This document shows, piece by piece, positions 3,101-26,209 of a stretch of DNA of 39,774 bases. A program made the position numbers and the translations under genes. How positions within the stretch are numbered: position 1 is the first letter of the stretch; every line of letters starts with the position of its first letter. A model generated the notes under the pieces. It worked only from the letters and a program-made list of their open reading frames with translations. It was not told the origin of the DNA and did not search any database. The DNA is from Candidatus Eiseniibacteriota bacterium (GTDB lineage: Bacteria; Eisenbacteria; RBG-16-71-46), in the NCBI GenBank assembly GCA_044222065.1, contig JBGAOA010000040.1, positions 1 to 39,774 on the forward strand. The letters are read 5' to 3'.

Positions 3101-3400
3101 AGCCGCCGCCCTTCTGGAAGTCGAAGTCCACGCGCAGCGCGTTGCCCTTCGCGCCGGGCTCGCTCGCGAGCTTCATGAGCACGCCGCTCGCGGGCATCGT
3201 CGTCCACGCGCCCGTGTCCTCGAACGCGTCGAGCACGCGCGGCGGCGCGAGCGCGCGCACCTGGGCCGACGTGGCCGCCGGCGCCGGAACCGCGGGAGCC
3301 GCGATCGCGCGGCCGTCGCGCGGCTTCGCCGCGGCCGCGCACGAAACGGCGCTCGCGCCGAACAGCGCGAGCGCCACGAGCGTCCACTTCGCGTCAGCGT

Positions 3401-3404
<4 letters not shown>
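153..3404 (-). CDS. Exported discoidin (F5/8 type C) domain protein with an N-terminal CBM-like domain and a C-terminal six-hairpin glycosidase-like domain, 1083 aa
   Basis: True start MNADAKWTLVALALF overlaps the upstream permease stop (ATGA, 3401-3404). Signal or lipoprotein-like N-terminus (SAVSC). Discoidin motif AVVDADANSAWR..WIELDCG..YDVKLSDDGAAW. (alpha/alpha)6-type motifs YARSWIRDG, EHDSHGE, HSYWDDFW, GDLPHTWV. Confidence 0.8.
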
Positions 3405-4218
<814 letters not shown>

Positions 4219-4222
<4 letters not shown>

Positions 4223-5115
4223 CGCGCCTCCTTCCGCTGCAGCCGCAGCTGCAGCAGCGTGCCGACCAGCATGAAGCCGAACAGCACGAACGCCATCGAG
4301 CTCGCGAGCCCCATGCGCCACCAGCGGAAGCCCTGCTCGTACAGCAGCAGCACGACCGTGACGGTGCTGCGCAGCGGGCCGCCCTGCGTCATCACGTACG
4401 GCTCCGAGAACAGCTGGAAGTTCCCGATCATCGTCAGGATGCCGACGAACACGAGCGTCGGGACGAGCGCCGGCAGCGTGATGTGGCGGAAGCGCGACCA
4501 GCCGCTCGCGCCGTCGAGTTCGGCGGCCTCGTAGAGTTCGCGCGGGATCGCCTGCAGTCCGGCGACGAAGATCAGCATGTTGTAGCCGAAGTTCTTCCAC
4601 ACGCTGAGCCCGATGATCGCGGGCATCGCCCACACCGGATTGCCGAGCCAGTCGATCACGGGCAGGTGCAGCGCCTGCAGCGTCGCGTCGATCAGGCCGT
4701 ACTTCGGGTGGTAGAGGTAGCGGAACACGATCGCGACCGCGACGAGCGTCGTGACGACGGGCGCGAAGAAGATGACGCGGAACAGTCCCTTCGCGCGCGC
4801 CGCGCGCGCGTTCACGAGCATCGCGGTCGCGAGCGACACGACGACCGACAGCGGGCTGCCGACGAACACGTAGATGAGCGTGTTCCTGAGCGCGCTCCAG
4901 AACTCGGCGTCGGTGAGCACGCGGCGGTAGTTGCCGGCGCCGAGGAAGCGGATCACCGACGGGTCGCCGATCGCGTAGATGTCGAAGTCGGTGAGGCTCA
5001 GCACGAGGCCGCCGATCACGGGCACGACGAAGAACACGGCGATCAGCAGCAGTGCGGGCGTCAGGAACGTCCACGCCGCGCGCTCCTGGCGCTGCAGGTC
5101 GTCGCGCCGTCTCAT
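4219..5115 (-). CDS. Carbohydrate ABC transporter permease (MalF-like)
   Basis: ATGA overlap at 5112-5115. LYEAAELDGAS EAA motif, WKNFGYNML, MTQGGP. Confidence 0.92.
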
Positions 5116-6401
5116 CGCGGCGCCCCCGCGGTCTCGACGCGGTGCCCGGCGAGCCAGCGGCGCTTCTCGAGCATGCGGTCCACGTCGCGATCGAGACGCG
5201 CGAGCGCCGAGTCGGGCGGCACCGCGCCGCGCACGGCGCGCTCCGCCCAATCCTGGAGCCGGATCGCGATGCTCTCGCACTCGGGCACGTTCGGCAGTCC
5301 CGCGGTGCGGCCGAGCTGGACGCCGAACGCGCGCGTGTTCGCGTCGTTCGTGAGCGAGGAGTCGCGCCACGACTCGGTGCGTGCGGGCAGGTCGCCGCAG
5401 ATCCGGTAGAAGCGCGTCTGCTGCTCGGGGCGCGACAGGAACTCGATCAGCTTCCACGCGCTCTCCTTGTGCTTCGACGAGCGCGTGATGACGAGGCTCG
5501 CGCCGCCCGCCATCGAGAGCCCGCTCTCGGGACCGTCGGGGCCCGGCAGCGGCGCCGTCGCCCAGATGTGCTGGCGGTCGGCGGGCAGCCGGCGCGCGAA
5601 CTCGCCGAGGTTCCACGGTCCCGTGATGTACATCGCGAAGTAGCCGCGGTCGAACTCCTGGTAGAGGTTCGCGATCTCGGTGTTCGAGACGGGCGGCGCG
5701 AGGCTGTCGCGGAACAGGCTCGTGAAGAACTCGAAGCCGCGCCGGAACTCGGGGCCCGAGAAGTCGCCGCGCGTGTCGCCGTCCTTCAGGATCTTCGAGC
5801 CCGCCTGAAGCCCGAGGATCATCTGCGGAGGCCACTCGTTGAGCGGCAGGAAGATCGCGTAGTGATCGCGCCCGCCGATGCGCCGGATCGCCTGCATCGC
5901 CGCGCGCCACCCCTCCCACGTCTGCGGCATCTCGTCGTATCCGGCGTTGGCGAGCAGGTCGCGGCGGTAGAACAGCACGCGCGTGTCCACGTACCACGGC
6001 ACGCCGTAGAGCACGGAGTCCACGACGTTCGTCTGCCAGATGCCGGGGAAGAACCCGTCGCGCCGCACGTCCGACGAGGCTGCGACCCGCGCATCGAGCG
6101 GCTCGATCGCGCGCATCGCGCTGAACTCGCTCACCCACGAATTGCCGAGCTGCGTCACGTCCGGGAGCGAGCCGCCGACGTGCGCGGTGAGCAGCTTCTC
6201 GTGCGCCGACGACCACGGCAGCTGCTGCACTTCGACCTTCACGCCCGGGTTCTCGCGCTCGAAGTCCGCGATCAGCTCCTGCACGACTTCGCCCTCGCGG
6301 CCCATCGCCCAGAAGCGCAGCGTCTCGCCGCGGCGCTCGCCCGAGCACGCGCCGAGTGCGAGCGCCAGCGCGGCGATCGCGAGCGAGCGGCGCGCGGTCA
6401 T
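5112..6401 (-). CDS. Sugar ABC transporter substrate-binding lipoprotein
   Basis: Start MTARRSLAIAALALALGAC (lipobox). FERENPGVKVEVQQLPW, YGVPWYVDTRVLFYR, AMYITGPW typical of CUT1 binding proteins. Confidence 0.92.
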   Translation of the reverse strand: MTARRSLAIAALALALGACSGERRGETLRFWAMGREGEVVQELIADFERENPGVKVEVQQLPWSSAHEKLLTAHVGGSLPDVTQLGNSWVSEFSAMRAIEPLDARVAASSDVRRDGFFPGIWQTNVVDSVLYGVPWYVDTRVLFYRRDLLANAGYDEMPQTWEGWRAAMQAIRRIGGRDHYAIFLPLNEWPPQMILGLQAGSKILKDGDTRGDFSGPEFRRGFEFFTSLFRDSLAPPVSNTEIANLYQEFDRGYFAMYITGPWNLGEFARRLPADRQHIWATAPLPGPDGPESGLSMAGGASLVITRSSKHKESAWKLIEFLSRPEQQTRFYRICGDLPARTESWRDSSLTNDANTRAFGVQLGRTAGLPNVPECESIAIRLQDWAERAVRGAVPPDSALARLDRDVDRMLEKRRWLAGHRVETAGAPR

Positions 6402-7882
6402 GGCGTCGCCGGCGCCGCGTCGAGCCAGCCGCCGGTGAAGCCGGCGCGGCGCAGACCCCGCACGAGGTGCGGGTTCCTGCGCATCGTGTTCCACACGAGC
6501 CCCGTGCGCGCGTTCTCGATCATCGCGACGATCGGGCCCTGGTCGATGCCGAGGTAATCGGTGTCGAACCAGCCGAGGCCGGGCACGACCCGGCCGTGGT
6601 GCGTGTCGGCGGCGACGTTCAGCGTCGGGTTGAACGCGTCCACGAAGCCGTAGCGGCCGAAGAGCGGCGCGCCGTAGCGCGCGCGCATCTCGAGCAGCGC
6701 GGCGACGCACTCCTTCGGCGCGAACGGGACCGAGCCGCCGGCGCCGGTCGGGGCGATCGTGCCGTCGTCGATCACCTCGGTGAAGCACGCGCCGCGCGCG
6801 GCGTACGTGCGGAAGTGGCGCTTGCGGCCGTCGATCACGAGGTCGGCGTCGAGCGGGCCGTCGCACGCCGACAGGCCCCACACGTTCTCGCCGTAGTCGC
6901 GGAAGCCCTCGGGATTCGCGATCGCGTACGCACGCTGGGACAGCGTCGCGCGCTTCGTGTTCTCGAAGTAGTCGAAGCCCTTGTCCTTCATCCACGCGTC
7001 CTGGATGCCGCGGAAGTCCACCCACACGTGCGAGTAGTGGTGACCGAACAGCGGCGCGAAGCCGAGCAGCGTCTGGCCGTGGAACTCGCCGAGCTGGTAC
7101 GAGCTCGTGTAGCCCTCCCACGCGCCGTCGGGAGCCGGGTGCGTCGGCGAGCCGAGCGCGAGCAGGTACAGGATCATGGTCTCGTTCAGGCCGCGGTAGT
7201 CGTACGGCAGGTGGCCTTCCTCGGGGAACCACCCGAGCGTCAGCACCGGCGGGCGCACGACGGCCCAGTCCCACTCGACGCGCGCGTACAGCGACTCCGC
7301 GATCGCGCGGACGTGCGCCTCGCGCGGCGTGTCGCGGTCGAACCAGCTCTGGCAGAAGAGCACGCCGGCCATGAGGATCGCCGTGTCCTGCGTCGAGAGC
7401 TCGACGCGCTCGAAGCGCACGCCGGTCGCGGGATCGAGGAAGTGGTAGAAGAAGCCGCGGTACCCGCTCGCGCCCGCCGCCGCCGTGTCCTGGCGCGCGT
7501 TCCAGAAGAACTCGAGCGTGCGCGTCGCGCGCTCGAGCGCCTGCTCGCGCGTGATCCAGCCGCGCTCGGCACCGATCGGGTACGCGGTGAGCGCGAAGCC
7601 GACGGCGGCGACGCTCGAGAACGACTTCGTCGGCCAGCGGTCGGGCGTGAGCCCGGTCGTGGAGTCGCTCGTGTCCCAGAACCACTCGAACGTCGCGCGT
7701 TCGAGCGAATCGAGGAACGCGATCTCGTTCGGCGCGAGCACGCCCGCGAGCGAATCCGCGGCGGGGCCGCGGGACGCGGAGCGCGGCGCGCCGCAGCCCG
7801 CGAGCGCGGCGAGCAGGAGCGCGAACAGGCAGGCGAGCGCCCGGGTACCGCGGCGAGGCTCCGTCCTCGGGGGCGCGATCAT
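6398..7882 (-). CDS. Glucoamylase-family / GH144-like endo-beta-1,2-glucanase, lipoprotein
   Basis: Lipobox LAGC. Motifs GFFYHFLD, ELSTQDT, LNETMILY, PLFGHHYSH, WGLSACDGP, DDGTIAPT, GIDQGPI characteristic of GH144/PF10091-type proteins. Confidence 0.85.
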   Translation of the reverse strand: MIAPPRTEPRRGTRALACLFALLLAALAGCGAPRSASRGPAADSLAGVLAPNEIAFLDSLERATFEWFWDTSDSTTGLTPDRWPTKSFSSVAAVGFALTAYPIGAERGWITREQALERATRTLEFFWNARQDTAAAGASGYRGFFYHFLDPATGVRFERVELSTQDTAILMAGVLFCQSWFDRDTPREAHVRAIAESLYARVEWDWAVVRPPVLTLGWFPEEGHLPYDYRGLNETMILYLLALGSPTHPAPDGAWEGYTSSYQLGEFHGQTLLGFAPLFGHHYSHVWVDFRGIQDAWMKDKGFDYFENTKRATLSQRAYAIANPEGFRDYGENVWGLSACDGPLDADLVIDGRKRHFRTYAARGACFTEVIDDGTIAPTGAGGSVPFAPKECVAALLEMRARYGAPLFGRYGFVDAFNPTLNVAADTHHGRVVPGLGWFDTDYLGIDQGPIVAMIENARTGLVWNTMRRNPHLVRGLRRAGFTGGWLDAAPATP

Positions 7883-7886
7883 GCGG

Positions 7887-8939
7887 TCAGCGTCCCGACT
7901 CGCCCAGTCCGCGGTTCCAGCGCGTGAGCCCCTCGGCGTCGGGCCACGCGACGCCGCACGAGCTGCGCACGACGAGCGTCGTCGGCAGCCGCTCGAGGCG
8001 GCCCTCCTCGTCGCCGTTCTCGGCGGGCGGCTCGAGCAGCAGGTGCACGGCGCGCTGGCCGAGGCCGAGCATGTCCACGCGCACCGTCGTGAGCGGCGGC
8101 GTGAGGTAGCGCGCGAGCGGAATGTCGTCGAAGCCCGCGATGCCGAGATCGCCGGGCACACTCAGCCCCGCGTCCTGGAACGCGCCGAGTGCGCCGACGG
8201 CCATGTAGTCGTTCGCGACGAACACGGCCGTCGGCCGCGGCTCGGCCTCGAGCAGGCGCTTCGCCGCCTCGTATCCCGAGTGTTCGGTGAAGTCGCCGCG
8301 GAACACGAGTTCGGGCGACGGCTCGAGCTGGAGCGCGCGCATCGCGTCGCGCCAGCCCTCGAGGCGCTGCTGCGCGTCCACGTTGCGCGCGGGCCCGCAG
8401 ATCGTCGCGATGCGACGGTGCCCGAGTTCGTGGAGGTGCCTGACGACCTCGACCGCGCCTTCGCGGTTCGCGATCGTGACGGCGCGCACGCCGGGGATGC
8501 GCGCTTCGGGGTTCAGCAGCACGGCGGGCACGTTTCCGGTGAGCGCCTTGAGCGACTCGGTGTCGAGGTCGGGCGCCATGACGAGCAGTCCGTCCACGCG
8601 CCCGCGCATCGAGCGCAGCGCGCTCGTCAGCTCCTGCGCGCTCGAACTCGTGCGCGACACGATCAGGTGGAAGCCGCGCTCGCGCGAGGCGATGTCGATG
8701 CCGTGGATCACTTCCGAGAAGAACTCGCCGTGCAGGTCGGGCAGCAGCGCGCCGAGCGTGTGCGTGCGGTTCGTGATGAGGCTGCGCGCGATGCCGTTCG
8801 GCCAGTAGCCGAGCCGCTGCGCCACCTCGACCACGCGCGCGCGCGTGTCTTCGCTCACGAGCGCGCTGTCGTTGAACACGCGCGAGACGGTCGCGATGGA
8901 CACGTTGCTCGCCTTCGCCACGTCACGGATCGTCGCCAT
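7887..8939 (-). CDS. LacI-family transcriptional regulator
   Basis: MATIRDVAKASNVSIATVSRVFN helix-turn-helix, hinge YWPNGIARSL, periplasmic-binding-like core (NDYMAVG, GFDDI, PPLTTV). Confidence 0.96.
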   Translation of the reverse strand: MATIRDVAKASNVSIATVSRVFNDSALVSEDTRARVVEVAQRLGYWPNGIARSLITNRTHTLGALLPDLHGEFFSEVIHGIDIASRERGFHLIVSRTSSSAQELTSALRSMRGRVDGLLVMAPDLDTESLKALTGNVPAVLLNPEARIPGVRAVTIANREGAVEVVRHLHELGHRRIATICGPARNVDAQQRLEGWRDAMRALQLEPSPELVFRGDFTEHSGYEAAKRLLEAEPRPTAVFVANDYMAVGALGAFQDAGLSVPGDLGIAGFDDIPLARYLTPPLTTVRVDMLGLGQRAVHLLLEPPAENGDEEGRLERLPTTLVVRSSCGVAWPDAEGLTRWNRGLGESGR

Positions 8940-9022: not shown

Positions 9023-10648
9023 TCATCGCACCTTCACGGTCTTGCACGCGGCCGTGCGCCCGCCCGCTTCCACGCGGACGAGGTACACGCCGGCACCCAG
9101 GTCACGGTCGTTCCACTCCACCGTCTGCTCCCCCGCCGAACGCGTGCCTTCGAACACGCGCGTCACGAGGCGGCCGTGGACGTCGAACACGTCCACCTTC
9201 GCCGTCCCCGCCGCGGGCAGGCGGAAGCGCACGAGCGCCGAGCCGCGGAACGGATTCGGTTCGGTCGCGATCGCGAGATCCGAGCCCGCGCGCGTCGGAG
9301 CCGGCTCGACGTCCGCGGTCGTGGCGGGCAGGAAGCCCGCCTTCGCGAGCCCCGCCTGCACGTACGGGTTCGACATGAAGCGGTTCCACACGGCGCCCGT
9401 GCGGTAGTTCTCGATCATGATCACGATCGGGCCCTGATCGATGCCGATGTGGTCCGCGTCGTACCAGTTCACGGTCGGGTTCAGCGCGTCGCGGAATCCG
9501 TACGGTCCCCAGATGTTCGGGCGGTAGTGATCCCACAGGTTGTGCATCACGCGCAGCGCCTCGACGTGCGCCCACGGCAGCGACGAGGCGGCCGCGGTCG
9601 GCGCGATCGTGCCGTCGTCGTTCATGCCGGGCGGCGCGCCGCGCGCGTTGTAGCCGGTCGGTCCGTCGCACGCGGTGAGCCCCCACAGGCTGTCCGAGTA
9701 GCCCGTCCAGTGCAGCGGATTGAAGGCGGCGTACTCGATCTGCGCCATCGTCGCGCGGCGCGAGTTCTCGAAGTACGTGATGCCCTTCGTGCGCATGTAC
9801 TGGTCCTGGATGTGGCGGAAGTCGATCCAGCAGTGCGAGTACTGGTGGCCGAACAGCGGCTGGAAGTACACGTGCTGGTAGCCGTACCAGCTGGCCCAGA
9901 AGTAGCCGCCGGTCCAGTAGTTCCAGTCCGAGGCGGGCACGGTCTTGTTCGGGTTCGGATGCCCGAGCGCGAGGATGTACATGACCATCGCTTCGTTGTA
10001 CCCGCGCCACCGCCCGAAGCCGTTGAAGTTCGTGCCCGGCTTCCAGCCCATGAGGAGGCCGTCGCTCAGGTTGCGCATGAATTTCCAGTCGGCGCGCCGG
10101 TAGAGCGTGTCGGCGAGCGCGCGGATCGCCACCTCGTCCGTGTCGGGCTGGTCGAAGTACTGCATTGCGTCGATCACGCCGGCGAACAGCAGCCCCGTGT
10201 CGATCGTCGACAGCTCCGAGTCCCACGTGCGCGTGCCGGAGTTCATGTCGAGGAAGTGGTAGAAGAGCCCCTTGTAGCCGGTGTACGCCCCGCTCGAGCT
10301 GCTCTGCGGGCCGTCGTAGAGCCACTGCAGCGTCGTGCGCACGCGCTGGCGCGCCTGCGCGCGAGTGATCCAGCCGTGATCGCTGCCGATGCAGATTGCG
10401 GACAGGCCGAAGCCCATCGAGGCGATGCTCGCGGGCGAACTCGGCGTCGAGCGGTCCTTGACCATGCCGTTCGCCGGATTCGCCTCGTTCCAGAAGAAGT
10501 TGAACGACGCGTGCTGGAGCGTGTCGAGCAGCGCGGTCGAGGAAATGGCGTGCGCCTCTCCCGCGACGAGCGCCGCGCCGAGCGCGCCGGCGAGCGCGAG
10601 GGCCGCGACGCGGCGCGCGGCTGCGGATGCGAATGCGAGATGTCTCAT
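9023..10648 (-). CDS. Secreted GH144-like beta-1,2-glucanase with a T9SS type-A-like / FlgD-Ig C-terminal domain
   Basis: Signal peptide ending AHA. Same GH144 motifs (ELSTIDT, YNEAM, PLFGHQYSH, GIDQGPI). CTD PNPF..VDVFDVHGRLV..AGVYLVRV..KTVKVR. Confidence 0.87.
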   Translation of the reverse strand: MRHLAFASAAARRVAALALAGALGAALVAGEAHAISSTALLDTLQHASFNFFWNEANPANGMVKDRSTPSSPASIASMGFGLSAICIGSDHGWITRAQARQRVRTTLQWLYDGPQSSSSGAYTGYKGLFYHFLDMNSGTRTWDSELSTIDTGLLFAGVIDAMQYFDQPDTDEVAIRALADTLYRRADWKFMRNLSDGLLMGWKPGTNFNGFGRWRGYNEAMVMYILALGHPNPNKTVPASDWNYWTGGYFWASWYGYQHVYFQPLFGHQYSHCWIDFRHIQDQYMRTKGITYFENSRRATMAQIEYAAFNPLHWTGYSDSLWGLTACDGPTGYNARGAPPGMNDDGTIAPTAAASSLPWAHVEALRVMHNLWDHYRPNIWGPYGFRDALNPTVNWYDADHIGIDQGPIVIMIENYRTGAVWNRFMSNPYVQAGLAKAGFLPATTADVEPAPTRAGSDLAIATEPNPFRGSALVRFRLPAAGTAKVDVFDVHGRLVTRVFEGTRSAGEQTVEWNDRDLGAGVYLVRVEAGGRTAACKTVKVR

Positions 10649-11691
10649 TCTTCATTGCCTCCGAACGTGATTCCGAAGCTCAGGCGATGGACGTCTCCGA
10701 GACGTCCGAAGTCCGCCCAGGCGTAGTCCACGCGATAACCGTAATCGTCGTAGCGGCCGAGGTACCCGAAGCCCGCGGTCGGACCGGTCTCGGCGTCGGT
10801 GAGGAACGCGTCCTGCCAGCCCGCGCGCAGCGCCATCGTGCGACGGAGCACGAGCTCGAGCCCCGCGCTCACGCTCTCCTGCTGGTCGTTCGGATGGAGC
10901 GCGTCGAGCACCGCGTCGAGCTTCGCGTCCTTGCCGAGGTCGAACGTCTGCCCCACGCCGACGCGGAACACGACCGGCATGTCGAACGCGTCCATCGCGA
11001 GGTTCGCCGGCAGCGAGCCGTTGTCGCCGAAGCGCTCGGGATCCGAGTCGTACAGCAGACGAAGGTCGCTGCCCGAGTAGCGGCCCTGCGTGCCGAAGTA
11101 CGCGAGGCTCGAACCGAGGCGGAAACCGCGGTCCGAGACGCGGTAGAGCGTGCCGAAGCTCGCGGTCGCGGCGCTCGTCGTGCTGTGCCAGATGGACTCC
11201 TGCATCCAGTGCACCTGGCCGCCGACCGAGAAGCGGTCGGTGATCTGGCGCGCGTAGCCGAGCCCCAGCGCGACGTCGTTGACGCTGAACTGCTCGCCCG
11301 TGCCGAGCGGCGACTCGACCGTGCGCACGAGCATGTCGCCCGATCCGAGCGACGTGAACGTCGCGAACACGCCGCCAAAGCGCCCGAGCGGCATGCCGAA
11401 GCCGATGTAGTTGAGCCGCGTGCCCGCGAGCCACTCGGCGCTCGAGAACACGGCCTCGTAGCGCTCGAGCTCGGCGGCCGAGGCCGGGTTGTAGTACACG
11501 CCGTCGATGCCCGCGTTGAACGACGAGGCAGCGTTGCCGAGCGCCGCCATGCGCGCGCTCGGCTCCACGAGCAGGAACTGTCCGATCGTCGTGCCGGCCT
11601 TGCTCTGCGCCGACGCGGCGCCGGCGCAGGCGAGCAGCGCTGCGAGGGCCGCGAGCGCCGTCCGTGCGAGGAAACCCGTGCGCGCGCTCAT
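10645..11691 (-). CDS. PorV/PorQ-family outer-membrane beta-barrel (T9SS shuttle-like)
   Basis: Signal peptide, then K.GTT..QFL...SARMAALGNA..YYNPA, FSVGGQV, LRAGW, VDYAW..FGRLG.VHRLSF. ATGA-coupled at both ends. Confidence 0.83.
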   Translation of the reverse strand: MSARTGFLARTALAALAALLACAGAASAQSKAGTTIGQFLLVEPSARMAALGNAASSFNAGIDGVYYNPASAAELERYEAVFSSAEWLAGTRLNYIGFGMPLGRFGGVFATFTSLGSGDMLVRTVESPLGTGEQFSVNDVALGLGYARQITDRFSVGGQVHWMQESIWHSTTSAATASFGTLYRVSDRGFRLGSSLAYFGTQGRYSGSDLRLLYDSDPERFGDNGSLPANLAMDAFDMPVVFRVGVGQTFDLGKDAKLDAVLDALHPNDQQESVSAGLELVLRRTMALRAGWQDAFLTDAETGPTAGFGYLGRYDDYGYRVDYAWADFGRLGDVHRLSFGITFGGNEE

Positions 11692-14600
11692 TTGATCACC
11701 GCGAACTTGCCGACGTGCGTGCCGAGGCCCGGCGCGTCCACGTGGAACAGGTAGAGCCCGGGCGCGACGTCGAGGTTGTCCTCGTTGCGCAGGTCCCACG
11801 CGACGAATCCCGCGCTCGTGCCGTCCTGGTGCAGCGTGCGGACGAGTCCGCCGCGCACCGTGTAGATGCGGATCGTCGAGCCGAGCGGCACGGAGCGGAA
11901 CTCGATGCGGCGGTCGCCGCGCCCCGCGGTCGCCGTCCGCTGCGGCTCGAAGCTCGCGGCGCCGACGTAGGGGTTCGGGACCACGTACGGACGCTCGCCC
12001 CACTGGTCCTGCGCGAGCGTGCGATCCACGTACTGCCCCTTCGTCGTGAAGCGGTACATGTCGTTGTCTCCGAGCGGCAGCACGAGCTTCACGTCGAGCG
12101 TGTCGCCCGCGTGGGGGCGCACCGCCGGGACCGGGAAGCGCGGATCGAAGTCCACGCGCCAGGTCGCGTCGAACTGCGACGGCGTCGCGCCCTTGAAGGG
12201 CAGCACGAGGTCGAAGTACTCGCTGGACTGGTCGAGGTAGCCGTTGTTGTTGAGATCCTGGAAGCGGATGTCCACCTGCCGGGGGCCCGAGTCGGTCTTC
12301 ACGTACACGAGGAAGCGCGAGACGTGGCGCAGCACGGGCGACAACTGGAGCCCCGTGTCGCGCACCGCGTCGTCGAAGACGACGTAGAAATCCTCGGGGT
12401 ATCCGGGCCGCCGCCGGTTCGCGCTGCGCCCCGGCTGGTACGTCACGCGGAAGCGCGCGTCGCTCGTGCCGCCCGTGCGGAGCTTCACGCTCGCCGAGTC
12501 CACGGTCGGCACCGCCTGCGTGTACACGACCGGCAGCAGGCCGCCGCCCGCGACGCCGACGCCCGCGCTGTCGAAGTCGGCGCCGTTGTCGAGCAGGGTG
12601 CGGCCTCCCGCCACGGTCGTGTCCACGAGCACGTAGCGCCCGGCGCGCACGCTGTCGGGCGCCGGCGCGTGGAAGCGCAGCACGAACTCGTGACCGTCCG
12701 GCACCGAGTCCGTGCCGACGACCTCGACGCGCACGTTGCCCGTGCCCTTGCCCGAGAATTTCTCGAGCGACCCCGCGGAGGCGCGCGTGAAGCCCGGGGC
12801 GCGCCGGTTCGGCCGCACTTCGACGACGTTCGACGGATACAGGAACCCGCCGCGCGGCGTGCCGGTCGTGAAGAACGAGTTCTCGGACGGGAAGTACACC
12901 TTCGACTCCGGCACCTCCGGCGTCGAGCCGTAGTCGTACGACGTGATCGCGTAGAAGTAGCGCTGGCCGTTCACGACGTCGGTGTCGGTCCACGTGTGCG
13001 GGATGCCGGTGTCGTCGCCCATCCAGAAGCCGACGCCCTCGACGGTGCGGCGCGTGTAGTACCCGCGCAGGCTGTCGGCGAGGTCGAACTGGACGAGCGG
13101 CCTGCCGGGCAGCGTCGAGGGATTGCCCTGCCCGGTCGTGAGCACCTTCACGTCGCGGAAGTCGGGATCGGTCGAGCGGTAGATCTTGTAACCCTCGAAG
13201 TCGCGCTTGTGCGTGACCGGGTCCACCGAACGCTCGGCGACGTCGTTCCACGACAGCTTCACGAAGCCGTCGCCGGGCTCGGCCGTGAGCGTCGGCAGGT
13301 GCGGCGCGACCGCGAACTGGTAGTTCGCGTCGTAGATCTGCTGCACGGTGCGCACGTTCGTGCGGAGTTCCGAGAGGTCGGCGCCGTAGGCGAGCGCGAG
13401 GCTGAAGCGCTCGGTCGCGCCCGCGGGCAGGCGGAACGGCCCCGACGCGAACAGGAACGCGATGTTGTAGTTCTCGACGAGCGCCGAATCGAAGCGCGCG
13501 GCGGGATTGGGATCGGAGAACTTGTTGTAGAGGCGCTCGGGCCAGTGCTGGCCGTCCTCGTAGAACACGATGCCGTCCACCGTGCGGTCGACGTTGTTCG
13601 GATCCGCCTTGATGCGGTTGAGCTTGAAGCCCGTGAGGCCGATCTGGTCCGACTCGTTGAGGTCGGTGCGGCCGAAGTTCGGTTCGCCCTGCGTCGGCGC
13701 GCCGTCCCCTTCGCCCGTGTCGTGCGTGTCCTCGAGCCCGTCGGCGCCGACGTCGTCGAACTGCGGATCCCAGTCCATGTCCTCGTCGCCCGGGTACCAG
13801 ATGCCGGCAATGAACGCGGGCCGCAGATCGAGAGCGCCGTAGCTCGCCACGAACTTCGTCGTGTCGTAGCGGCCGTCGTGGAACGCGGCGCGAATCGCGT
13901 CCGCGCCGACGAACGGCGTGCCCGGACCGTTGACGCGGCTTTCGTTCCGCAGGCCGTCGCCGTCGTTGTCGAGCCCGTCGTACTCGTTGCCCGGCGTCTC
14001 GAGGTACGCGTAGCCGAGGTAGCCGGTGCGCTCGCAGCCGAGCAGGTCCACGCCGCGCCCGCGCTTGTCCCACGTGTAGACGAGGTTCAGTCCGGCGTTG
14101 CGGTCCCAGAAGCAGTTGTCGTCGTCGGACTCGTAGACGTTGTCGCACGAGTACTCGGAGCCGCCGACGCCCGAGTCCATGTAGAGGCCGAAGACGATGT
14201 TGTCGTTGTAGTCGGTCGTGCTCTCGTTCGTGATGTCGTAGTGCCAGAAGATCACGTTTCCGGCCTGCGGATTCGACCACTGGAACCCGCGCACCTCGAC
14301 CCGCAGGCCGAGGCCGTGCCGCGTCGAGTCGCGCGTGTCCGGGATGTACGGCAGCGTGAAGTACGCGTCGTCGTCCATCACCGTGAAGCTCTCCTGATCC
14401 GCGGCGGGGCGCTTGCCGAAGTAGCCGTTCCACGCGCCCGACCAGCCGGGATCGTCGCCGGAGTCGAGCTTGTCGGGCCAGAACGACGGCCACGTGCGCG
14501 AGTCGCTGCTGATCGCGGGCGAGTTCGCCGAGTTCGTGCGCGGATCGTCGTTGAAGTAGCCGGGCCGCGGCTCGAAGCGCAGTTGGCGCTCCTCGAACGG

Positions 14601-14972
14601 GCTGCGCTCCTGGCGCTCCCGGAAACCCGTCTCCATGTGGTACTGCGTGCCGCCGAAGCGGTCCGTGATGCGCGCGAGCACGAACGGCGTGATGCCGTCC
14701 GTGTAGTTCATGCCGCTGCCCTTCGGCACCTCGGCCGAATGGAACAGCGCGAGGTTCGCGTCGCCCGGATTCGACGGGTAGTCCCCGACCATGCCCCAGT
14801 TGTAGAAGCGCGTGCGGATGTTCGCCGCGTCGTGCTGCCCGAGGCGCTCCGCCGAGATCTTGCCGCGCTGCGGCGCCGGCACCGGCGTGGGCACCGCCGC
14901 GCGCGCCGCGGTCGCGACGAGCGCCGCGGCCGCGAGCAGGGCGAGGCCCGCCGCCATCGTCTTCGAGCCCAT
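11688..14972 (-). CDS. Large secreted hypothetical protein (~1090 aa) with Asp-rich Ca-binding-like motifs, an Fn3-like domain and a CTD ending KFAVIK
   Basis: ATG at 14972 has a GGGAAGGGA RBS; an alternative start at 15005 overlaps the TBDR stop. Signal peptide, DGLDNDGDG, DDVGADG..DTGEGDG, Fn3-like VKLSW..FEGYKIYRS..YFYAITSYD, CTD VVPNPY..IRIYTVRGGLV..WDLRNED..APGLYLFHV..GKFAVIK. Confidence 0.8.
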   Translation of the reverse strand: MGSKTMAAGLALLAAAALVATAARAAVPTPVPAPQRGKISAERLGQHDAANIRTRFYNWGMVGDYPSNPGDANLALFHSAEVPKGSGMNYTDGITPFVLARITDRFGGTQYHMETGFRERQERSPFEERQLRFEPRPGYFNDDPRTNSANSPAISSDSRTWPSFWPDKLDSGDDPGWSGAWNGYFGKRPAADQESFTVMDDDAYFTLPYIPDTRDSTRHGLGLRVEVRGFQWSNPQAGNVIFWHYDITNESTTDYNDNIVFGLYMDSGVGGSEYSCDNVYESDDDNCFWDRNAGLNLVYTWDKRGRGVDLLGCERTGYLGYAYLETPGNEYDGLDNDGDGLRNESRVNGPGTPFVGADAIRAAFHDGRYDTTKFVASYGALDLRPAFIAGIWYPGDEDMDWDPQFDDVGADGLEDTHDTGEGDGAPTQGEPNFGRTDLNESDQIGLTGFKLNRIKADPNNVDRTVDGIVFYEDGQHWPERLYNKFSDPNPAARFDSALVENYNIAFLFASGPFRLPAGATERFSLALAYGADLSELRTNVRTVQQIYDANYQFAVAPHLPTLTAEPGDGFVKLSWNDVAERSVDPVTHKRDFEGYKIYRSTDPDFRDVKVLTTGQGNPSTLPGRPLVQFDLADSLRGYYTRRTVEGVGFWMGDDTGIPHTWTDTDVVNGQRYFYAITSYDYGSTPEVPESKVYFPSENSFFTTGTPRGGFLYPSNVVEVRPNRRAPGFTRASAGSLEKFSGKGTGNVRVEVVGTDSVPDGHEFVLRFHAPAPDSVRAGRYVLVDTTVAGGRTLLDNGADFDSAGVGVAGGGLLPVVYTQAVPTVDSASVKLRTGGTSDARFRVTYQPGRSANRRRPGYPEDFYVVFDDAVRDTGLQLSPVLRHVSRFLVYVKTDSGPRQVDIRFQDLNNNGYLDQSSEYFDLVLPFKGATPSQFDATWRVDFDPRFPVPAVRPHAGDTLDVKLVLPLGDNDMYRFTTKGQYVDRTLAQDQWGERPYVVPNPYVGAASFEPQRTATAGRGDRRIEFRSVPLGSTIRIYTVRGGLVRTLHQDGTSAGFVAWDLRNEDNLDVAPGLYLFHVDAPGLGTHVGKFAVIK

Positions 14973-15004
14973 CACTCGCTGTCCCTTCCCTGTCGGCCGT
15001 CGCA

Positions 15005-17674
15005 TCACCGCGCGCTCCTCAGGTTCACGCCGATCTCGACGCGGCGCGGCTGGTAGAAGCGCGTCGCTTCGGCGAGCTTCGCCTGGTCGTGCGAAGGATC
15101 GGACGAATAGTCCACCTGACCCGAGTTCGCGAACACGAATCCGTTGAAAAAGCGCGTGTCGAACACGTTGAACACGCGCGCGAACACCTGCCCCGGCAGC
15201 CCGGCGACCTTGAACGACTTCTCGGCCCGCAGGTCCACGAGCCGCGCCGAGGGCTTGCGCGCCGAGTTGCGCGGCGTCGTGCCCCCGTACTGCGACGGCC
15301 GGTCGGGCTGGTAGGGCTGTCCGCTCGCGACGCGCACGACCGCGCTCATCGAGAACGCGTCGGGGCTCGCGAGCTGCAGCGTCACGTTGAGCGTGTGGCG
15401 CTGGTCCCAGTTGAGCGGGATGCGCTCGGGGCGCGGGTCGAGCCGCTGCTCGGCGAGATGCGCCGTCTCGAACGGATCGCTCGTGTTGCCCTGCGCGTTC
15501 TGCCACGTGTAGTCGAGCGTCGAGCTGAACAGCCCCTTCGAGCGCTGGTCGAGCGAGAGCGTGAAGCCGAGCACGTTCCCGAAGTCCACGTTCGCGAGCC
15601 GCGCGTACTGGGCCTCGTTGTAGGTGACGATGATCTCGGAGCCGAGCAGGTCGCTCACGTCCTTGTAGAACGCATTCGCGTCGAGGCCGAGCCAGTCGGT
15701 CAGCGCCTGCCGGTAGCCGAACTGGTACTGCACGGTCTTCTCGGGGCGGATGTCCGGATTGCCCATCGACGTGAAGTTCGCATCGCCCGACTGGAGGTTG
15801 TAGAGCGTGCGGTAGTTCGCGTTCTTGAACACGTCGCCGAGGCCGGGCATCTGGTAGAAGTGACCGTACGCGAAGAACACCGAGGCGTTCTTGCCGATCG
15901 GGTACGACACGCCGATGCGCGGCGAGATCGTCATCTTCGCGGTCGTCGCGACGAGCGGCGAACTCGGGGCGCCGGGGATCGAGTCGGCCGGGTTCTTCAG
16001 GTCCGCCGGCAGCGCCGACCGGGCGCTGAAGTACTCGAACCGCGCGCCGGCGCGGATCCTCAGGTCCTCGATCTCGATCTCTTCCTGCGCGAACGCGGCG
16101 CCGATTCGCGGGTGGTACGTGAGGATGCCGGGCTTGAAAGGCTCGGCCGCGGCGAAGTGGTCCACCGTGAGCTGTCCCGACGCGACGACGTAGCCGGGAT
16201 CGCCGAACTCGAGCGTCGGCCACTGGAACTCGCCTCCGAACTGGAGCTCGTTCGTCGCGTTGAGCTGCGTGACGAACTTGCCCTTGAGGATCGGCGCGTT
16301 CGTCACCTGGCGGAAGCGGCCGAGGTCCACACCCTGCACGTACGCGCCCTCCTCGAGGACGGGATCGCCGTGCAGCGGACCGGCCGCGTCGTAGTTGCCG
16401 TCGAGGTAGCTCTCGTACGCCATGTCGGTATAGCGGAAATAGTTCTGGCGCAGGCTCAGCGTGTAGTACGTGGACGGCGCGAGCGTGTGCGTCCAGTCGA
16501 GCCCGTGCGTGATCGAGAACGTGTTCTGCGTCTTCGCACCGTCGGGCAGGTAGCGGAACGCCCACTCGGCCTTGCGTGCCTCGATCGCGTTCACGATCGC
16601 CTGATAGCTCAGGTTCAGATCCTTGAGGCTGCGGTTGTCGAGCTTCGCGATCGCCGACCACTCACGCGTGTAGCCGAGCGGTTCGCGCGCCCCGTCGCCC
16701 GTCGGGAAGAAATAGTGGTTCTCGAAGTCGGCGCGGTCGGTGATGTTGAAGATCCGCCAGCCGCGCAGGTAGTCGCGGTTGATCGCGCGCCGCACGTTCG
16801 TGAGGAACGTCGTCGCGGGCAGGCCCGTCGGGCCGGTGAGGCTGAACTGGTAGTTCTGCGCGTCGTTCGCGTCCACCTTCGATGTGAAGTCGAAGAAGTC
16901 GCCGCCGTAGTCGCGCGGCTTGGCGTCGAACGCCCACGCGCCACGGTAGATCTCGCCGTCCCATTCGAACTTGTCGCTGCCCTTGCGCAGCACGGCGTTC
17001 ACGACGCCCGACAGCGCCTGGCCGTACTCGGCGTCGAAGGTGCCGCTGATGACCTGCACTTCCTCGAGCAGCGAGCGGTCGAGCCGCAGCGTGGACTTGT
17101 TGTCGTACGCGTTGTTCACGCTGACGCCGTCCACCTGGTACTGCACTTCGCCCACGCGCCCGCCGCGGAAGTGCCCGTCCACGACGCCGGCTTGCAGGTT
17201 CACGACGTCGGCGAGTTCCTGCACCGGCAGCTTCGCGATCTCGCTGCGCGACACGGCGACGGCGGAACTCGTGAGCTTCAGGTCCACGACCGGACGCTCG
17301 GCCGTGACGACGACTTCCTTCATGTCCACCGGCGCCACGTCCATCTCGCGATCGACTCGAGCGATGTTGTCCGCCGAGACGATCACGTCCTTCACCATCT
17401 GCGTCTGGTAGCCGAGCAGCGCGAGCCGCACCTCGTACGAGCCCGGCGCGACGTTGAGGATCGTGAAGCGTCCCTGCGCGTCGGTCACGGCGCCGGTGCG
17501 CGCCGCGGGCACGACGACGTTCACGCCTTCGAGCGGCTGCTTCTTCTTGTCCACGATGCGGCCGGCGATCTTGCCCGTCGTGCCCGCGAACGCCGCGGCG
17601 ATCGCGAACGACACGCCGAACACGGCGACCAGCGCGAACCGCAAGACCCGCACTCCCACCTCCCGAACGCTCAT
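15005..17674 (-). CDS. TonB-dependent receptor with N-terminal carboxypeptidase-regulatory-like domain
   Basis: Signal peptide, GKIAGRIVD..GVNVVV..G.F.ILNV.PG.Y, plug HFRGGRVGEVQYQVDG, GTFDAEYG, ISPRIGVSYP, GNPDIRPEKT, FNVFD. Confidence 0.92.
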   Translation of the reverse strand: MSVREVGVRVLRFALVAVFGVSFAIAAAFAGTTGKIAGRIVDKKKQPLEGVNVVVPAARTGAVTDAQGRFTILNVAPGSYEVRLALLGYQTQMVKDVIVSADNIARVDREMDVAPVDMKEVVVTAERPVVDLKLTSSAVAVSRSEIAKLPVQELADVVNLQAGVVDGHFRGGRVGEVQYQVDGVSVNNAYDNKSTLRLDRSLLEEVQVISGTFDAEYGQALSGVVNAVLRKGSDKFEWDGEIYRGAWAFDAKPRDYGGDFFDFTSKVDANDAQNYQFSLTGPTGLPATTFLTNVRRAINRDYLRGWRIFNITDRADFENHYFFPTGDGAREPLGYTREWSAIAKLDNRSLKDLNLSYQAIVNAIEARKAEWAFRYLPDGAKTQNTFSITHGLDWTHTLAPSTYYTLSLRQNYFRYTDMAYESYLDGNYDAAGPLHGDPVLEEGAYVQGVDLGRFRQVTNAPILKGKFVTQLNATNELQFGGEFQWPTLEFGDPGYVVASGQLTVDHFAAAEPFKPGILTYHPRIGAAFAQEEIEIEDLRIRAGARFEYFSARSALPADLKNPADSIPGAPSSPLVATTAKMTISPRIGVSYPIGKNASVFFAYGHFYQMPGLGDVFKNANYRTLYNLQSGDANFTSMGNPDIRPEKTVQYQFGYRQALTDWLGLDANAFYKDVSDLLGSEIIVTYNEAQYARLANVDFGNVLGFTLSLDQRSKGLFSSTLDYTWQNAQGNTSDPFETAHLAEQRLDPRPERIPLNWDQRHTLNVTLQLASPDAFSMSAVVRVASGQPYQPDRPSQYGGTTPRNSARKPSARLVDLRAEKSFKVAGLPGQVFARVFNVFDTRFFNGFVFANSGQVDYSSDPSHDQAKLAEATRFYQPRRVEIGVNLRSAR

Positions 17675-17764: not shown

Positions 17765-19651
17765 CTAATCCACGAACATCAGCTTGCCGGACACCGAAGA
17801 CTTGGGCTGGCCGCTGAGCGGATCGGAGAAGCGGATGCGAGCCAGATAGAGGCCGGTGGCGAGTCCCTGACGCGGAATCAGGGCCTGTCGGACGCCGGGC
17901 GAATGTACTCCCAGCGCCTTCGTCGCCACGAGACGGCCCTGGACGTCGAACAGCTCGAGATCGGCGCGGCTCGGAGTCGGAACCGAGAAGCGCAGGTTCG
18001 CGAACGTGCGCGCGGGATTCGGCACGGAGCCGAGCAGCGCGAAGTCCGCCGACAACGGGCCCTCGTCGCCGACGCCGGCGACGAGTTGCAGGCTCGGGTC
18101 CATGTACGCCCACGGCGAGCAGCAGGAGGTCTCGTACTCGCGCGCCCAGTGCGTGCGCGTCCCGTAGCTGTCCGTGAACGGGGTCCACGAATCGCCGTCG
18201 AGGTGGTTGAGCCCGATGAACACGATGCCGTCCCCGCGGCCCGACGGATAGCCGAGCTTGGTCAGGTCGATCACCATTTCGGCGGTGTAGCCCTCGTCGA
18301 AGTCGAGGCCGAGCGTGTCGACGGTCGTGTTGGGCTTGAGCTGGCCGCGCACGCGCGCGCCGACCGTCGGAATCGCGAGGTCGTCCGAGGGAATGAACGT
18401 GCCGCCGGTACCGACGCGGAACGACAGGCGCCGGCCGAGAAGAACGTTGTCCACGTTCACCGCCTGGCGCTCCTGGATGCTCACGATCATCCCGTCCCAG
18501 CGATCGAAGAACGGGCTGTTGCCGACCGCGAGATCCTGGACGTCGAAGCCGAAGTAGAGCGAGTCGCCCTTGAAGAAGTACTTCACGGTGCAGAGATTCG
18601 GATCGATGACGGGCGCCGTGCTCGCGTTCACCGTCGGCTGGTACTGCCCGGCGCGCCAGCGCATGAGACCCGGGTACGAGTCGCGCAGCACGTCATTGCC
18701 GTACTGCATCTGGATGCTCGGCGCGAGCCCCCACACCGGATCGTTCAGATTGCCGTCGATGACGGGCGCCGCGGCGCCGCCGGCGCTCGGAATGCGGAAC
18801 TCGGGCGCGAGCGAGGACGCGGGCACCGGTCCCGAGGTCACGGTCACGCTCGGCTTCGCCATCAGGCGGACTTCGTTGTAGCTCGCGTTGTTTCCCCACG
18901 GGCCCTGGAACCAGGTGCGGTTCGCGCTGAACTGCGGGATCAGCGGCCAGAACCAGTCACAGTCGTACACGGAGACGTTCCACTCCACCGTGTCGCCGTC
19001 GGCCGTCGTGATGTCGTAGCCCTCGGGCGTGAGGTTGAAGCGCATCTCGGTCACGTACTTCGTATCGTTGACGGCATCGGTGTTCGAAGTGCCGGTCACG
19101 ACCGTCGCGGCGTCCCACGCGTCGATCTGCTCGGGCGTCCGCGGCGTCGTGCCGCTGCCCCACTTGCCACGGAACGACGGTCCGAGCCCGGCGGGCAGCG
19201 GAGACGTCAGCTCGGGATACCACCACGAGTAGAAGTACTCGTCCGGCGGCGCGGGGTGCGAGCCGCTCAGGTGGTCCTTGATCGCCATGAGGAAACCGTC
19301 GAAGCGATTGAACGTCGGATCGCCGCCGATCGACTTATCGAAGACCGTGGCGCCCATGTAGATCTGATTGTCCTTCGCCAGCACCTTGATCACGGCGTAG
19401 GTCGGATCGCTCGGAAGCGTTCCGCCCTCGGCGCGGAAGCCGCTGCCGGGAATGCCCGTGACCGTCGCCCATTGCACGACCACCGATTCGGCGAGGGCCC
19501 ACTCGGGCTCGCTCAAGACGCCGTCGAGCGTAATCGGGGCGCCGTTCGTGAAGCGCGCCCACAGCACGTCCGGGCGGCCAGACTGCGCCCACGACGTCGT
19601 GGCGACGATGAGCAGCGAACAGACAGCGATGGTGGTTCTCAACGTCTTCAT
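17765..19651 (-). CDS. Secreted protein with two CBM9/DOMON-like sugar-binding domains and a T9SS-type CTD, 628 aa
   Basis: Start MKTLRTTIAVCSLLIVATTSWA with a GAGGG RBS. Internal repeat ITLDGVLSEPEW / VIDGNLNDPVW. CTD PNPA..LELFDVQGRLV..TGLYLARI..KLMFVD. Confidence 0.8.
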   Translation of the reverse strand: MKTLRTTIAVCSLLIVATTSWAQSGRPDVLWARFTNGAPITLDGVLSEPEWALAESVVVQWATVTGIPGSGFRAEGGTLPSDPTYAVIKVLAKDNQIYMGATVFDKSIGGDPTFNRFDGFLMAIKDHLSGSHPAPPDEYFYSWWYPELTSPLPAGLGPSFRGKWGSGTTPRTPEQIDAWDAATVVTGTSNTDAVNDTKYVTEMRFNLTPEGYDITTADGDTVEWNVSVYDCDWFWPLIPQFSANRTWFQGPWGNNASYNEVRLMAKPSVTVTSGPVPASSLAPEFRIPSAGGAAAPVIDGNLNDPVWGLAPSIQMQYGNDVLRDSYPGLMRWRAGQYQPTVNASTAPVIDPNLCTVKYFFKGDSLYFGFDVQDLAVGNSPFFDRWDGMIVSIQERQAVNVDNVLLGRRLSFRVGTGGTFIPSDDLAIPTVGARVRGQLKPNTTVDTLGLDFDEGYTAEMVIDLTKLGYPSGRGDGIVFIGLNHLDGDSWTPFTDSYGTRTHWAREYETSCCSPWAYMDPSLQLVAGVGDEGPLSADFALLGSVPNPARTFANLRFSVPTPSRADLELFDVQGRLVATKALGVHSPGVRQALIPRQGLATGLYLARIRFSDPLSGQPKSSVSGKLMFVD

Positions 19652-19920: not shown

Positions 19921-19934
19921 TGAAAACGGTTACA
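19921..19934. promoter_or_regulatory. LacI-family operator O1 (TGAAAACGGTTACA)
   Basis: 14-bp imperfect palindrome with central CG, fitting the LacI/GalR/CcpA pattern TGnnAnCGnTnnCA. An AT-rich island upstream of the operon that encodes the LacI. Confidence 0.75.
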
Positions 19935-20182: not shown

Positions 20183-20209
20183 TTGACAGTTACTTGCGAC
20201 TCATGAAAT
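20183..20209 (+). promoter_or_regulatory. Putative sigma70 promoter for the divergent unit
   Basis: Perfect TTGACA at 20183-20188. The expected -10 position falls within operator O2 and is weak (TGAAAT). Confidence 0.55.
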
Positions 20210-20218
20210 CGTTTTCAT
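20203..20218. promoter_or_regulatory. LacI-family operator O2 (ATGAAATCGTTTTCAT)
   Basis: 16-bp palindrome with one mismatched pair and central CG, similar to O1. Confidence 0.75.
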
Positions 20219-20447: not shown

Positions 20448-21290
20448 ATGAAGCGGATCGGCTACTGCCTTCTGACCCTCGCGGCGCTCGCCGTGATGGT
20501 CGGCGCTGCGAACGCGACGCCCACGATCAATGGCGCCGCGATCAACGAGCGCGTGTTCAACGACTGTCCGTTCTCGACGCCGTCGATCACGAACAACTAC
20601 CCGTCGTCGATCGTGATCTCCGACGCGATCGCGGCGAACAGCTGCGGCGGCTGGGCGAACCTCCACGCATGGAGCTTCTCGGCCGACGGCGGCGCGAATG
20701 CCGCCGTGTTCGACAACAACTCGTGCTTCAGCTTCGGGTGCGACCTCGTCATCACCGGCAATTGCCAGGTCGAGGCGGGCATCCGCATTTCGCCGTGGTG
20801 GAGCAAGTACGCCGACGGCCGCATCAACGTCCGCATCCCGGACGGCGAGATCGCGGCGTTCGGTGGCCGCATGCCGTTCATCAGCTGGACGAACCCGGGC
20901 CTCCCGCCGAACCTGAATCCCTGGGGTGCGGCGCTCCACTACGTCGCGGGCGACCCGATCCACCTCGAGATGCACTACGACGCGAACAGCCTGTCGTCGT
21001 CCGACCCGGGCGCGGTGATGTACGTCGTCGTCTACGGCGGCAACACCTACGCGACGCCGTGGCTGCTGCTCGACCAGGGCAATCCGGCCGAAGATCCGCC
21101 GTACGGCCTGTGGGGCATGCTGAACGACGGCCGCGTCGGCGGTCTGTTCCAGATCGACAACGGCGCGAGCCCGATCAGCCAGGCGAAGAACGGCACCGCG
21201 ACGTTCACGAACATCCAGTACACGAGCTGCACGAAGCCCACCCCGACGAAGGCGTCGACGTGGGGCCGCGTGAAGGCCCTGTACCGCTAG
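20448..21290 (+). CDS. Secreted hypothetical protein with C-terminal PTPTKASTWGRVKALYR tail, 280 aa
   Basis: AGGAGG RBS at 20432-20437. Signal peptide MKRIGYCLLTLAALAVMVGAANA, beta-rich body, short W/G/K/Y/R tail after a PTPT linker. Confidence 0.88.
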   Translation: MKRIGYCLLTLAALAVMVGAANATPTINGAAINERVFNDCPFSTPSITNNYPSSIVISDAIAANSCGGWANLHAWSFSADGGANAAVFDNNSCFSFGCDLVITGNCQVEAGIRISPWWSKYADGRINVRIPDGEIAAFGGRMPFISWTNPGLPPNLNPWGAALHYVAGDPIHLEMHYDANSLSSSDPGAVMYVVVYGGNTYATPWLLLDQGNPAEDPPYGLWGMLNDGRVGGLFQIDNGASPISQAKNGTATFTNIQYTSCTKPTPTKASTWGRVKALYR

Positions 21291-23919: not shown

Positions 23920-23921
23920 GA

Positions 23922-25961: not shown

Positions 25962-26209
25962 GGTGCGGCCCTCCGAAGGTCCGGATTCCGTGGGGGGGAT
26001 CGCCGGGCGCTCATCGTGGGCCCGGAATGCGTTTCGGTCCTTCCAGTCTCGGTTCGGCCCGGCCGGATTTCAGGACGAATCCGCCGACCGGCGATCCGAG
26101 TGCGTGAAGCCGGCTGCGTAACCGTCAAGCCGAGGCCGGGTCCGGCGATACTCCTCGGGGCGCTCCCTCGCCCGAGGCGGTGCCGCGAACTCCGTGAAGA
26201 GGGCCGCTC

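Follow-up and report, generated by a model that had tools for sequence, protein, structure and literature searches.

We analysed a 39,774-nucleotide stretch of DNA from Candidatus Eiseniibacteriota bacterium (assembly GCA_044222065.1, contig JBGAOA010000040.1; hereafter, the window), in which three genes lie head to tail on the minus strand: a TonB-dependent receptor of 889 aa (15005..17674), a large secreted protein of 1094 aa (the partner; 11688..14972), and an operon-linked barrel of 348 aa that matches the PorV/PorQ family model NF033709 (10645..11691). A previous examination of the letters alone (the sequence-only reading) had noticed this triad and the C-terminal domain (CTD) of the partner with its GKFAVIK end, and had proposed that the partner is exported through a type IX secretion system (T9SS), held on the surface by its own PorV paralogue, and placed as a cap over the receptor, within a glycan locus that has no SusD-like lipoprotein. 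The arrangement of the three contiguous genes is confirmed. Translation of the partner is taken to start from the ATG at 14972; an alternative GTG at 15008, which overlaps the stop codon of the receptor, would give 1106 aa. Overlaps of 4 nt join the partner gene to the barrel gene and the barrel gene to a GH144-like gene downstream, and the triad frames have a G+C content of 0.92-0.96 in third codon positions.

Profile searches divide the receptor into a signal peptide, a CarboxypepD_reg-like N-terminal extension (PF13715), a plug, and a barrel (PF00593). Its match to the SusC model TIGR04056 covers the N-terminal part only and reaches 56.7 bits, against the cut-off of 368.25, so that the receptor is not of the SusC type. 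The absence of SusD after the receptor extends beyond the locus: PF07980 was not found in this 94%-complete genome, with a positive control in B. thetaiotaomicron, nor in any of the 18 tested genomes of the Eisenbacteria phylum. The partner is no SusD-type subunit either, because it is mostly beta and the window copy has no cysteine lipobox; a loose lipobox pattern occurs in only three of 124 N-termini of its family.

The partner has a signal-peptide-like N-terminus, as judged by eye, and no Pfam match at E<=0.01; PDB sequence searches with the whole protein and with a profile of its largest domain returned nothing significant, and Foldseek with the whole model returned generic Fn3/Ig chains only. 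The AlphaFold2 model is confident and mostly beta (predicted local distance difference test score, pLDDT, 88.3; predicted template modelling score, pTM, 0.82), and it delimits four regions. The first, mature residues about 12-524 (13329..14867, minus strand, as all coordinates of the triad below), is a predicted beta-supersandwich, recognised by VIA structural matches and conserved residues; it carries two inserts, one aromatic (about 92-168), the other rich in Asp and Gly and likely calcium-binding (about 302-420). The second, about 531-697 (12810..13310), is a predicted Fn3-like beta-sandwich, defined by its strand pattern and by generic Fn3/Ig matches in Foldseek. The third consists of two variable beta domains (698-966; 12003..12809; pLDDT 96.4) that are missing in shorter paralogues, are 32-41% identical within the close clade and are best matched by FlgK (Z 8.4, root-mean-square deviation (rmsd) 2.3, 85 aligned); they are likely a spacer, and no carbohydrate-binding-module match was obtained for them, which does not exclude one. 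The fourth is a variant T9SS CTD (968-1070; 11691..11999), with seven predicted strands (972-1068), a VVPNPY...E...GRG loop, a GKF[AV][IV]IK end, and the covariation with the barrel described below. This CTD constitutes a distinct subtype present in eight proteins of the genome. The partner has type A-like features, i.e., a signal peptide (by eye), a seven-strand C-terminal sandwich and a terminal Lys motif, whereas the type A models TIGR04183 and PF18962 do not match it at E<=0.01 and the neighbouring GH144-like protein passes; the type B models TIGR04131 and PF13585 do not match it either. The C-terminus also has a weak match to the PorZ model (E 0.0036).

The supersandwich is most similar to the N-terminal domain of GH15/GH94 enzymes (Z 17-20; for example, 9ju0 with Z 19.7, rmsd 3.1, 268 aligned, and 1lf6 with Z 19.1, rmsd 2.8, 236 aligned). 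The resemblance is confined to this domain: the protein has no profile similarity to a GH94, and the model lacks the catalytic (alpha/alpha)6 barrel that would follow the supersandwich in GH15, GH65 or GH94. Within the clade associated with beta-1,2-glucan, supersandwich identity is 59-79% by segment, compared to 27-44% outside the clade, as expected of a ligand-specific domain, whether binding or catalytic. We considered the possibility that the partner is an enzyme of a new family, with an active site in the supersandwich (as in mutarotases, GH174 and some lyases), that trims or epimerises the glycan at the mouth of the receptor. Outside the acidic insert, the supersandwich is 67-79% identical in the close clade compared to 49% for the barrel, carries clade-specific invariant polar residues (e.g., E18, H54, E90, R96, D253, E257, N428, R429 and D442), and has mutarotase-like and GH174 structural matches with Z 13-14, all of which would suit a catalyst. 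However, the best matches are the GH15/GH94 N-terminal domains, which are non-catalytic, the near-universal residues are largely Gly, Pro, aromatic or positions of an Asp-rich motif, and one partner family serves many different glycan loci. We regard an enzyme as improbable; the expectation that the partner does not belong to a known enzyme family was borne out: Pfam and PDB sequence searches yielded none, and the structural matches to enzymes are confined to the supersandwich.

The barrel scores 144.4 bits with NF033709, above the cut-off of 90, which makes it a member of the PorV/PorQ family, and stays below the equivalog cut-offs of PorV (32 against 250) and PorQ (79 against 220). Its sole sequence match in PDB is PorV (6h3i_F, E 4e-6), and the PorP/SprF model TIGR03519 does not match it. 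We rejected an assignment of the triad to the housekeeping porU-porV pair, which sits on another contig.

Conservation of the triad, a check that the sequence-only reading had set, holds in close, distant and further sets of loci. All these loci were picked via a match to the partner, and the neighbour counts are conditional on it. Of 50 close loci (three duplicated), 48 have the receptor upstream and 49 have the barrel downstream, with every miss at a contig end; both neighbours are found in 40 of 40 distant loci, one of which has an inserted gene; and the order is kept in 97 of 100 further loci, the other three being receptor-barrel-partner. In a set of loci that included 80 metagenome loci, 142 of 193 partner matches lay in complete triads and a contig end truncated the locus in 30, whereas the remaining 21 were mostly split genes, along with true exceptions, namely reordered operons, an inserted gene and two loci without a barrel. 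Clustered at 90%, the partner family numbers at least 4228 proteins, with 479 representatives at E<=1e-30. It was detected in 115 of 121 genomes of the phylum of the present genome at E<=1e-10, in many only via the CTD; at E<=1e-40, 123 of the 301 genomes in the phylum of a record titled Bacteroidota have it. Close homologues are labelled Candidatus Eisenbacteria, and homologous loci also occur in Rhodothermales; the phylum range of distant homologues is taken from record titles only. A scan of representatives of 113 of the 153 neighbour clusters, plus four extra genes, found GH144, GH94, GH3, GH16, GH130, GH13, GH9, GH26, GH30, GH5 and GH2 beside loci of the family, with enzymes that vary from one locus to another. 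The present genome contains five receptor-partner modules, four of them with a barrel: all five receptors of the triad subfamily are in an operon with a partner, and all four barrels above 200 bits are in those operons. The other four modules have no obvious glycan enzymes adjoining them in rough gene calls, so that the module may serve other nutrients besides glycans. A search for fusions among proteins of 1916-5000 aa scored none of 6164 candidates, which is weak evidence.

Covariation between the three proteins was assessed with a home-made Gaussian score with product correction, the z values of which are not probabilities, in 204 non-redundant triads. Of the 142 triads first collected, 131 passed the coverage filter and 124 remained after removal of near-duplicates, and 96 of 97 new triads passed, of which 80 were kept. 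In the controls, partners were swapped between close relatives. The strongest partner-barrel pair, Arg1011 of the CTD (11868..11870) with Arg330 of the barrel (10702-10704), has a z of 12.2, compared to control maxima of 7.8-10.2 in 12 swaps and up to 11.7 in another control run. The top pairs (R1011-R330, Y1013-R330, L1051-L88 and L1049-V137; z 9.5-12.2) alternate along CTD strands, as expected of one face of a sheet. Six of the seven top pairs that hold in both halves of the data involve CTD residues, although the CTD makes up 10% of the columns, and R1011 and R330 changed on the same branch 15 times, compared to 3.4 expected. This covariation supports the proposal that the partner is held by its own PorV paralogue.

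For the receptor and the barrel, Tyr591 (15902..15904) and Thr181 (11149-11151) form the first-ranked of 207,192 pairs, with z 14.2 against control maxima of 7.6-10.1 in 25 swaps, and the pair ranks first in the odd, even and distant subsets as well. Y591-L192, in which L192 is the cross-hairpin neighbour of T181, ranks third or fourth. Tyr591 occurs with Thr or Ser in the barrel in 80 of 84 rows, residues other than Tyr occur with other barrel residues in 113 of 120, and Phe at 591 pairs with hydrophobic residues; such pairing would be consistent with hydrogen bonding or hydrophobic contact from one barrel to the other within the membrane. Both positions are lipid-facing by strand alternation read from the sequence. 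Covariation over the 204 triads supports two predicted contacts, that of the CTD with the barrel and that of the receptor barrel with the PorV-like barrel. Conversely, receptor-partner covariation did not exceed the controls in the 204 triads (maximum z 9.0, compared to 8.3-11.3), nor the periplasmic-domain control in 124 triads, and the claim that the partner caps the receptor obtains no backing from this analysis. The link of the partner to the receptor seems to run via the contact between the two barrels.

Taken together, we propose, at a probability of about 0.55, that the triad forms one outer-membrane uptake complex, in which the barrel would lie against the receptor and hold the CTD of the partner, while the partner would serve as a non-catalytic, non-lipoprotein glycan-capture subunit at the mouth of the receptor. 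Besides the missing receptor-partner signal, several observations weigh against this proposal. The receptor-barrel signal comes down to one receptor residue, as the surrounding patch shows no enrichment once Y591 is taken out (mean z 0.15, compared to -0.23 to 0.41); Y591-T181 ranks 14th in the close clade; and the tree co-change test does not single this pair out (z 3.6, with 29 receptor-barrel pairs above 5). The trees of the three proteins match (r 0.88-0.93 in 124 triads), but linked genes share history, and matching trees do not show binding. The genome also has three supersandwich paralogues without an adjoining receptor and one receptor-partner pair without a barrel. Furthermore, 18 of 50 partner-bearing genomes also encode SusD (one to six copies), and so do 15 of 30 other genomes; mutual genome-wide exclusion of SusD and the triad was therefore rejected.

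The combination of CTD-barrel and barrel-receptor covariation with no receptor-partner signal would also suit a partner that is a barrel-anchored surface glycan-binding or scaffold protein, similar to SusE/F, and stands beside the receptor without closing over it, and the receptor-less paralogues agree with this. This role, however, already fits the CTD protein with a CBM9-like region encoded upstream, the partner is one-to-one with the triad subfamily of receptors, and a set of 204 rows is too small to rule out direct contact of receptor and partner. We consider the SusE/F-like role rather unlikely.

The export of the partner by a T9SS, which the sequence-only reading had inferred, stands as far as the translocon is concerned: the genome encodes SprA (530 bits, cut-off 200), PorU (469 bits, cut-off 420) and, adjoining PorU, a housekeeping gene of the PorV family, and TonB domains are present. 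The ring and motor components, however, were not found: there is no GldM in this genome, GldK has weak matches below the cut-off only, and GldL and GldN have none, with silent controls and a genome 94% complete. Export would therefore be by a reduced T9SS. This negative result weighs against the uptake-complex proposal as well, because GldLM power the release of cargo from SprA in Flavobacterium (PMC10994853; papers cited here by PMC number are drawn on in excerpt). We compared 50 partner-bearing genomes with 30 others, in which neither of two candidates scored matched the partner at E<=1e-40, so that distant paralogues may be missed among them; the 80 genomes were picked from those listed first, and related genomes do not count as independent. 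Of the 50, 47 have SprA, as do 18 of the 30, whereas GldM was above the cut-off in none of the 50 and in 13 of the 30. Nearly all partner-bearing genomes of this panel have SprA without GldM, which suggests a T9SS lacking the known motor. A further alternative is that the barrel does no more than shuttle the partner transiently or help in assembly, with PorU releasing or processing the partner once it has been exported. PorU is present above the cut-off, canonical PorV is recycled (PMC12618676), and the FadL-family barrel BamG acts in membrane-protein assembly (PMC12611786), all of which would be compatible with it. On the other hand, a separate PorV adjoins PorU in the genome, every operon retains a barrel of its own, which covaries with both the receptor and the partner, and the CTD of the partner is of the distinct eight-protein subtype; we find a purely transient role very improbable.

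The genes around the triad bear out its placement in a glycan locus. The limits that had been assigned to the module, 10645..17674, are correct for the triad but omit a conserved gene on either side, both on the minus strand. Upstream lies a gene for a 628-aa protein with a CBM9-like region and a type A-like CTD by profile searches (17765..19651; upstream in 44 of 50 close loci), which is likely a surface glycan-binding protein. Downstream lies a gene for a GH144-like beta-1,2-glucanase with a type A CTD (9023..10648; PF10091, TIGR04183 above the cut-off; after the barrel in 45 of 50 close loci), assigned by homology alone: its PDB matches are 8xul, XcSGL (E 1e-104), and 5gzh (E 1e-56), and XcSGL is a beta-1,2-glucanase (PMC12102758). 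Further downstream on the same strand, profile searches identified a LacI-family regulator (7887..8939) and a second GH144-like enzyme with a sugar-binding protein and two ABC permeases (3401..7882). Hydrolases, a regulator and an inner-membrane transporter are thus co-located, a feature shared with the SusC/SusD type of polysaccharide utilization locus (PUL). The substrate is likely beta-1,2-glucan, because of the GH144-like enzymes, as a family, and the locus context.

The uptake-complex proposal can be represented as five steps, for which our certainty falls in the order of export, retention, barrel docking and glycan capture. First, Sec would take the partner across the inner membrane and SprA across the outer one, as suggested by the signal peptide, the CTD and the presence of SprA. 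Second, its own barrel would, very probably in view of the covariation, collect and retain it without handover to PorU. Third, the barrel would probably dock on the receptor near strand 583-591, as the one strong covarying pair indicates. Fourth, with what we regard as an even chance, the supersandwich would bind beta-1,2-glucan pieces released by the GH144-CTD enzyme, and feed or cap the channel. Fifth, a periplasmic GH144, the ABC transporter and LacI would complete the pathway, as their family annotation suggests. On a broader scale, with slightly less than even odds, the relatives of Bacteroidota could possess a second glycan-import machine of independent construction, a complex of three subunits whose T9SS shuttle barrel sits on a TonB receptor and bears a supersandwich lid, the T9SS that delivers it having neither Gld ring nor motor; such a machine may be that of lineages with little SusC/SusD and GldM. 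This matters because SusC/SusD is the yardstick by which glycan uptake is found and understood in the superphylum. If the proposal is true, "SusD-less" loci of Eisenbacteria, Rhodothermales and other relatives hold an unrecognised capture subunit from a large, unannotated family, and PorV-family barrels would newly be seen to act as adaptors that join a secreted protein to a transporter; the triad also prompts the question of what lets cargo go when a T9SS has no GldM. The model is testable, as homologous loci exist in groups with cultured members (Rhodothermales) and the covarying pairs suggest point mutants.

Several known systems share parts of this architecture. PorU-PorV and PorZ-PorQ form pairs, and the triad resembles them in that a barrel of the PorV/PorQ family would retain a CTD protein, with the weak CTD similarity of the partner to PorZ; it differs in that the partner has no sortase or propeller domain and the genome's own PorU-PorV is elsewhere. 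The T9SS attachment complex includes PorU, PorV, PorZ and PorQ (PMC11285876). Type B CTD substrates have cognate PorP/SprF shuttles (PMC12618676; PMC9143113), and there, too, the substrate gene is followed by a private barrel that carries and anchors the product; however, the triad barrel is of the PorV/PorQ family (NF033709), the partner's CTD resembles type A in its seven predicted strands and is not matched by the type B models, and the triad is tied to a transporter rather than to gliding or the cell wall. Only by analogy, the triad is similar to the Flavobacterium BAM complex, where BamG, a 14-strand FadL-family barrel beside a larger barrel, is a pillar for an extracellular canopy and holds a lipoprotein on BamA (PMC12611786), whereas the triad barrel would hold a CTD protein on a nutrient transporter. 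A further counterpart is SusC/SusD (RagA/RagB), the pedal-bin lid of Bacteroidota PULs (PMC13543919), where a TonB receptor with an N-terminal extension is likewise directly followed by a surface partner, and the glycan locus around them is regulated and also encodes hydrolases and binding proteins. The triad plausibly works like SusC/SusD, but falls outside this class by the receptor, which is not SusC by TIGR04056, and by the partner, a 1094-aa beta protein with a CTD as opposed to a tetratricopeptide-repeat lipoprotein; besides, the triad always has a linked third subunit, the barrel.

The sequence-only reading had named no characterised example, and in the literature searched, which leaves out subscription journals, the unit is not described; only its gene order appears, without comment, in the legend of Fig. 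2 of PMC9530828, where the Rhodothermus marinus alginate PUL runs in the same order from tonB via a T9SS type A sorting domain protein to a PorV/PorQ protein. The likeness is in gene order alone, and the sorting domain protein is of 726 aa. The Ignavibacterium album beta-1,2-glucan cluster (PMC8861115), with some genes left without a role, is like the triad locus in its GH144/GH94/ABC/TonB-dependent receptor content. The excerpts note T9SS in other phyla of the Fibrobacteres-Chlorobi-Bacteroidetes group as possible, and the terms T9SS, type IX, Rhodotherm- and Ignavibacteri- do not occur in a 2026 review on glycoside transporters. The triad is real, widespread and apparently uninterpreted in print.

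With respect to regulation, a pattern scan of the window, without a shuffle control, had only two matches to what we take to be the LacI-type palindrome consensus, both 5' of the operon (19921..19934 and 20204-20217). Short low-depth contigs from sludge metatranscriptome runs span the locus, and demonstrate neither transcription nor co-transcription.

Elsewhere in the genome, the receptor-less supersandwich paralogues (contigs C23:3105-5510, C89:71513-73873 and C117:8665-10017) have neither receptor nor barrel neighbours; two of them have the variant CTD and lie upstream of lipoprotein-like genes, and a barrel or receptor might serve the three in trans. Related modules are located amid housekeeping genes at C55:30888-39086, where a GWxTD-domain gene follows, and at C51:11342-16987, without a barrel, and a further partner gene (C84:5486-8484) is split into two open reading frames by an assembly gap (a run of N). 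Among distant loci, a gene for a PPIC-type prolyl isomerase frequently adjoins the triad (L069, L074-L083), and L065:6154-7941 has a 595-aa open reading frame with no Pfam match between receptor and partner.

Three other regions of the window should be noted. A 1083-aa protein on the minus strand (153-3404), which combines an F5/8 type C domain with a weak oligosaccharide-amylase-like match, recurs in related loci, has no sequence relative in PDB, and is a candidate glycoside hydrolase without an assigned family. A secreted-looking protein of 280 aa on the plus strand (20448-21290), without a Pfam match, is frequently retained in the loci of relatives; it ends in [ST]WG-x-x-K-x-x-YR, a tail shared by 38 predicted proteins of the genome, which is possibly a minimal sorting signal. 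Finally, 23341-28171 contains a second TonB receptor and a YfiR/HmsC-like gene, opposite a CHASE8-HAMP hybrid histidine kinase, unrelated to the triad.

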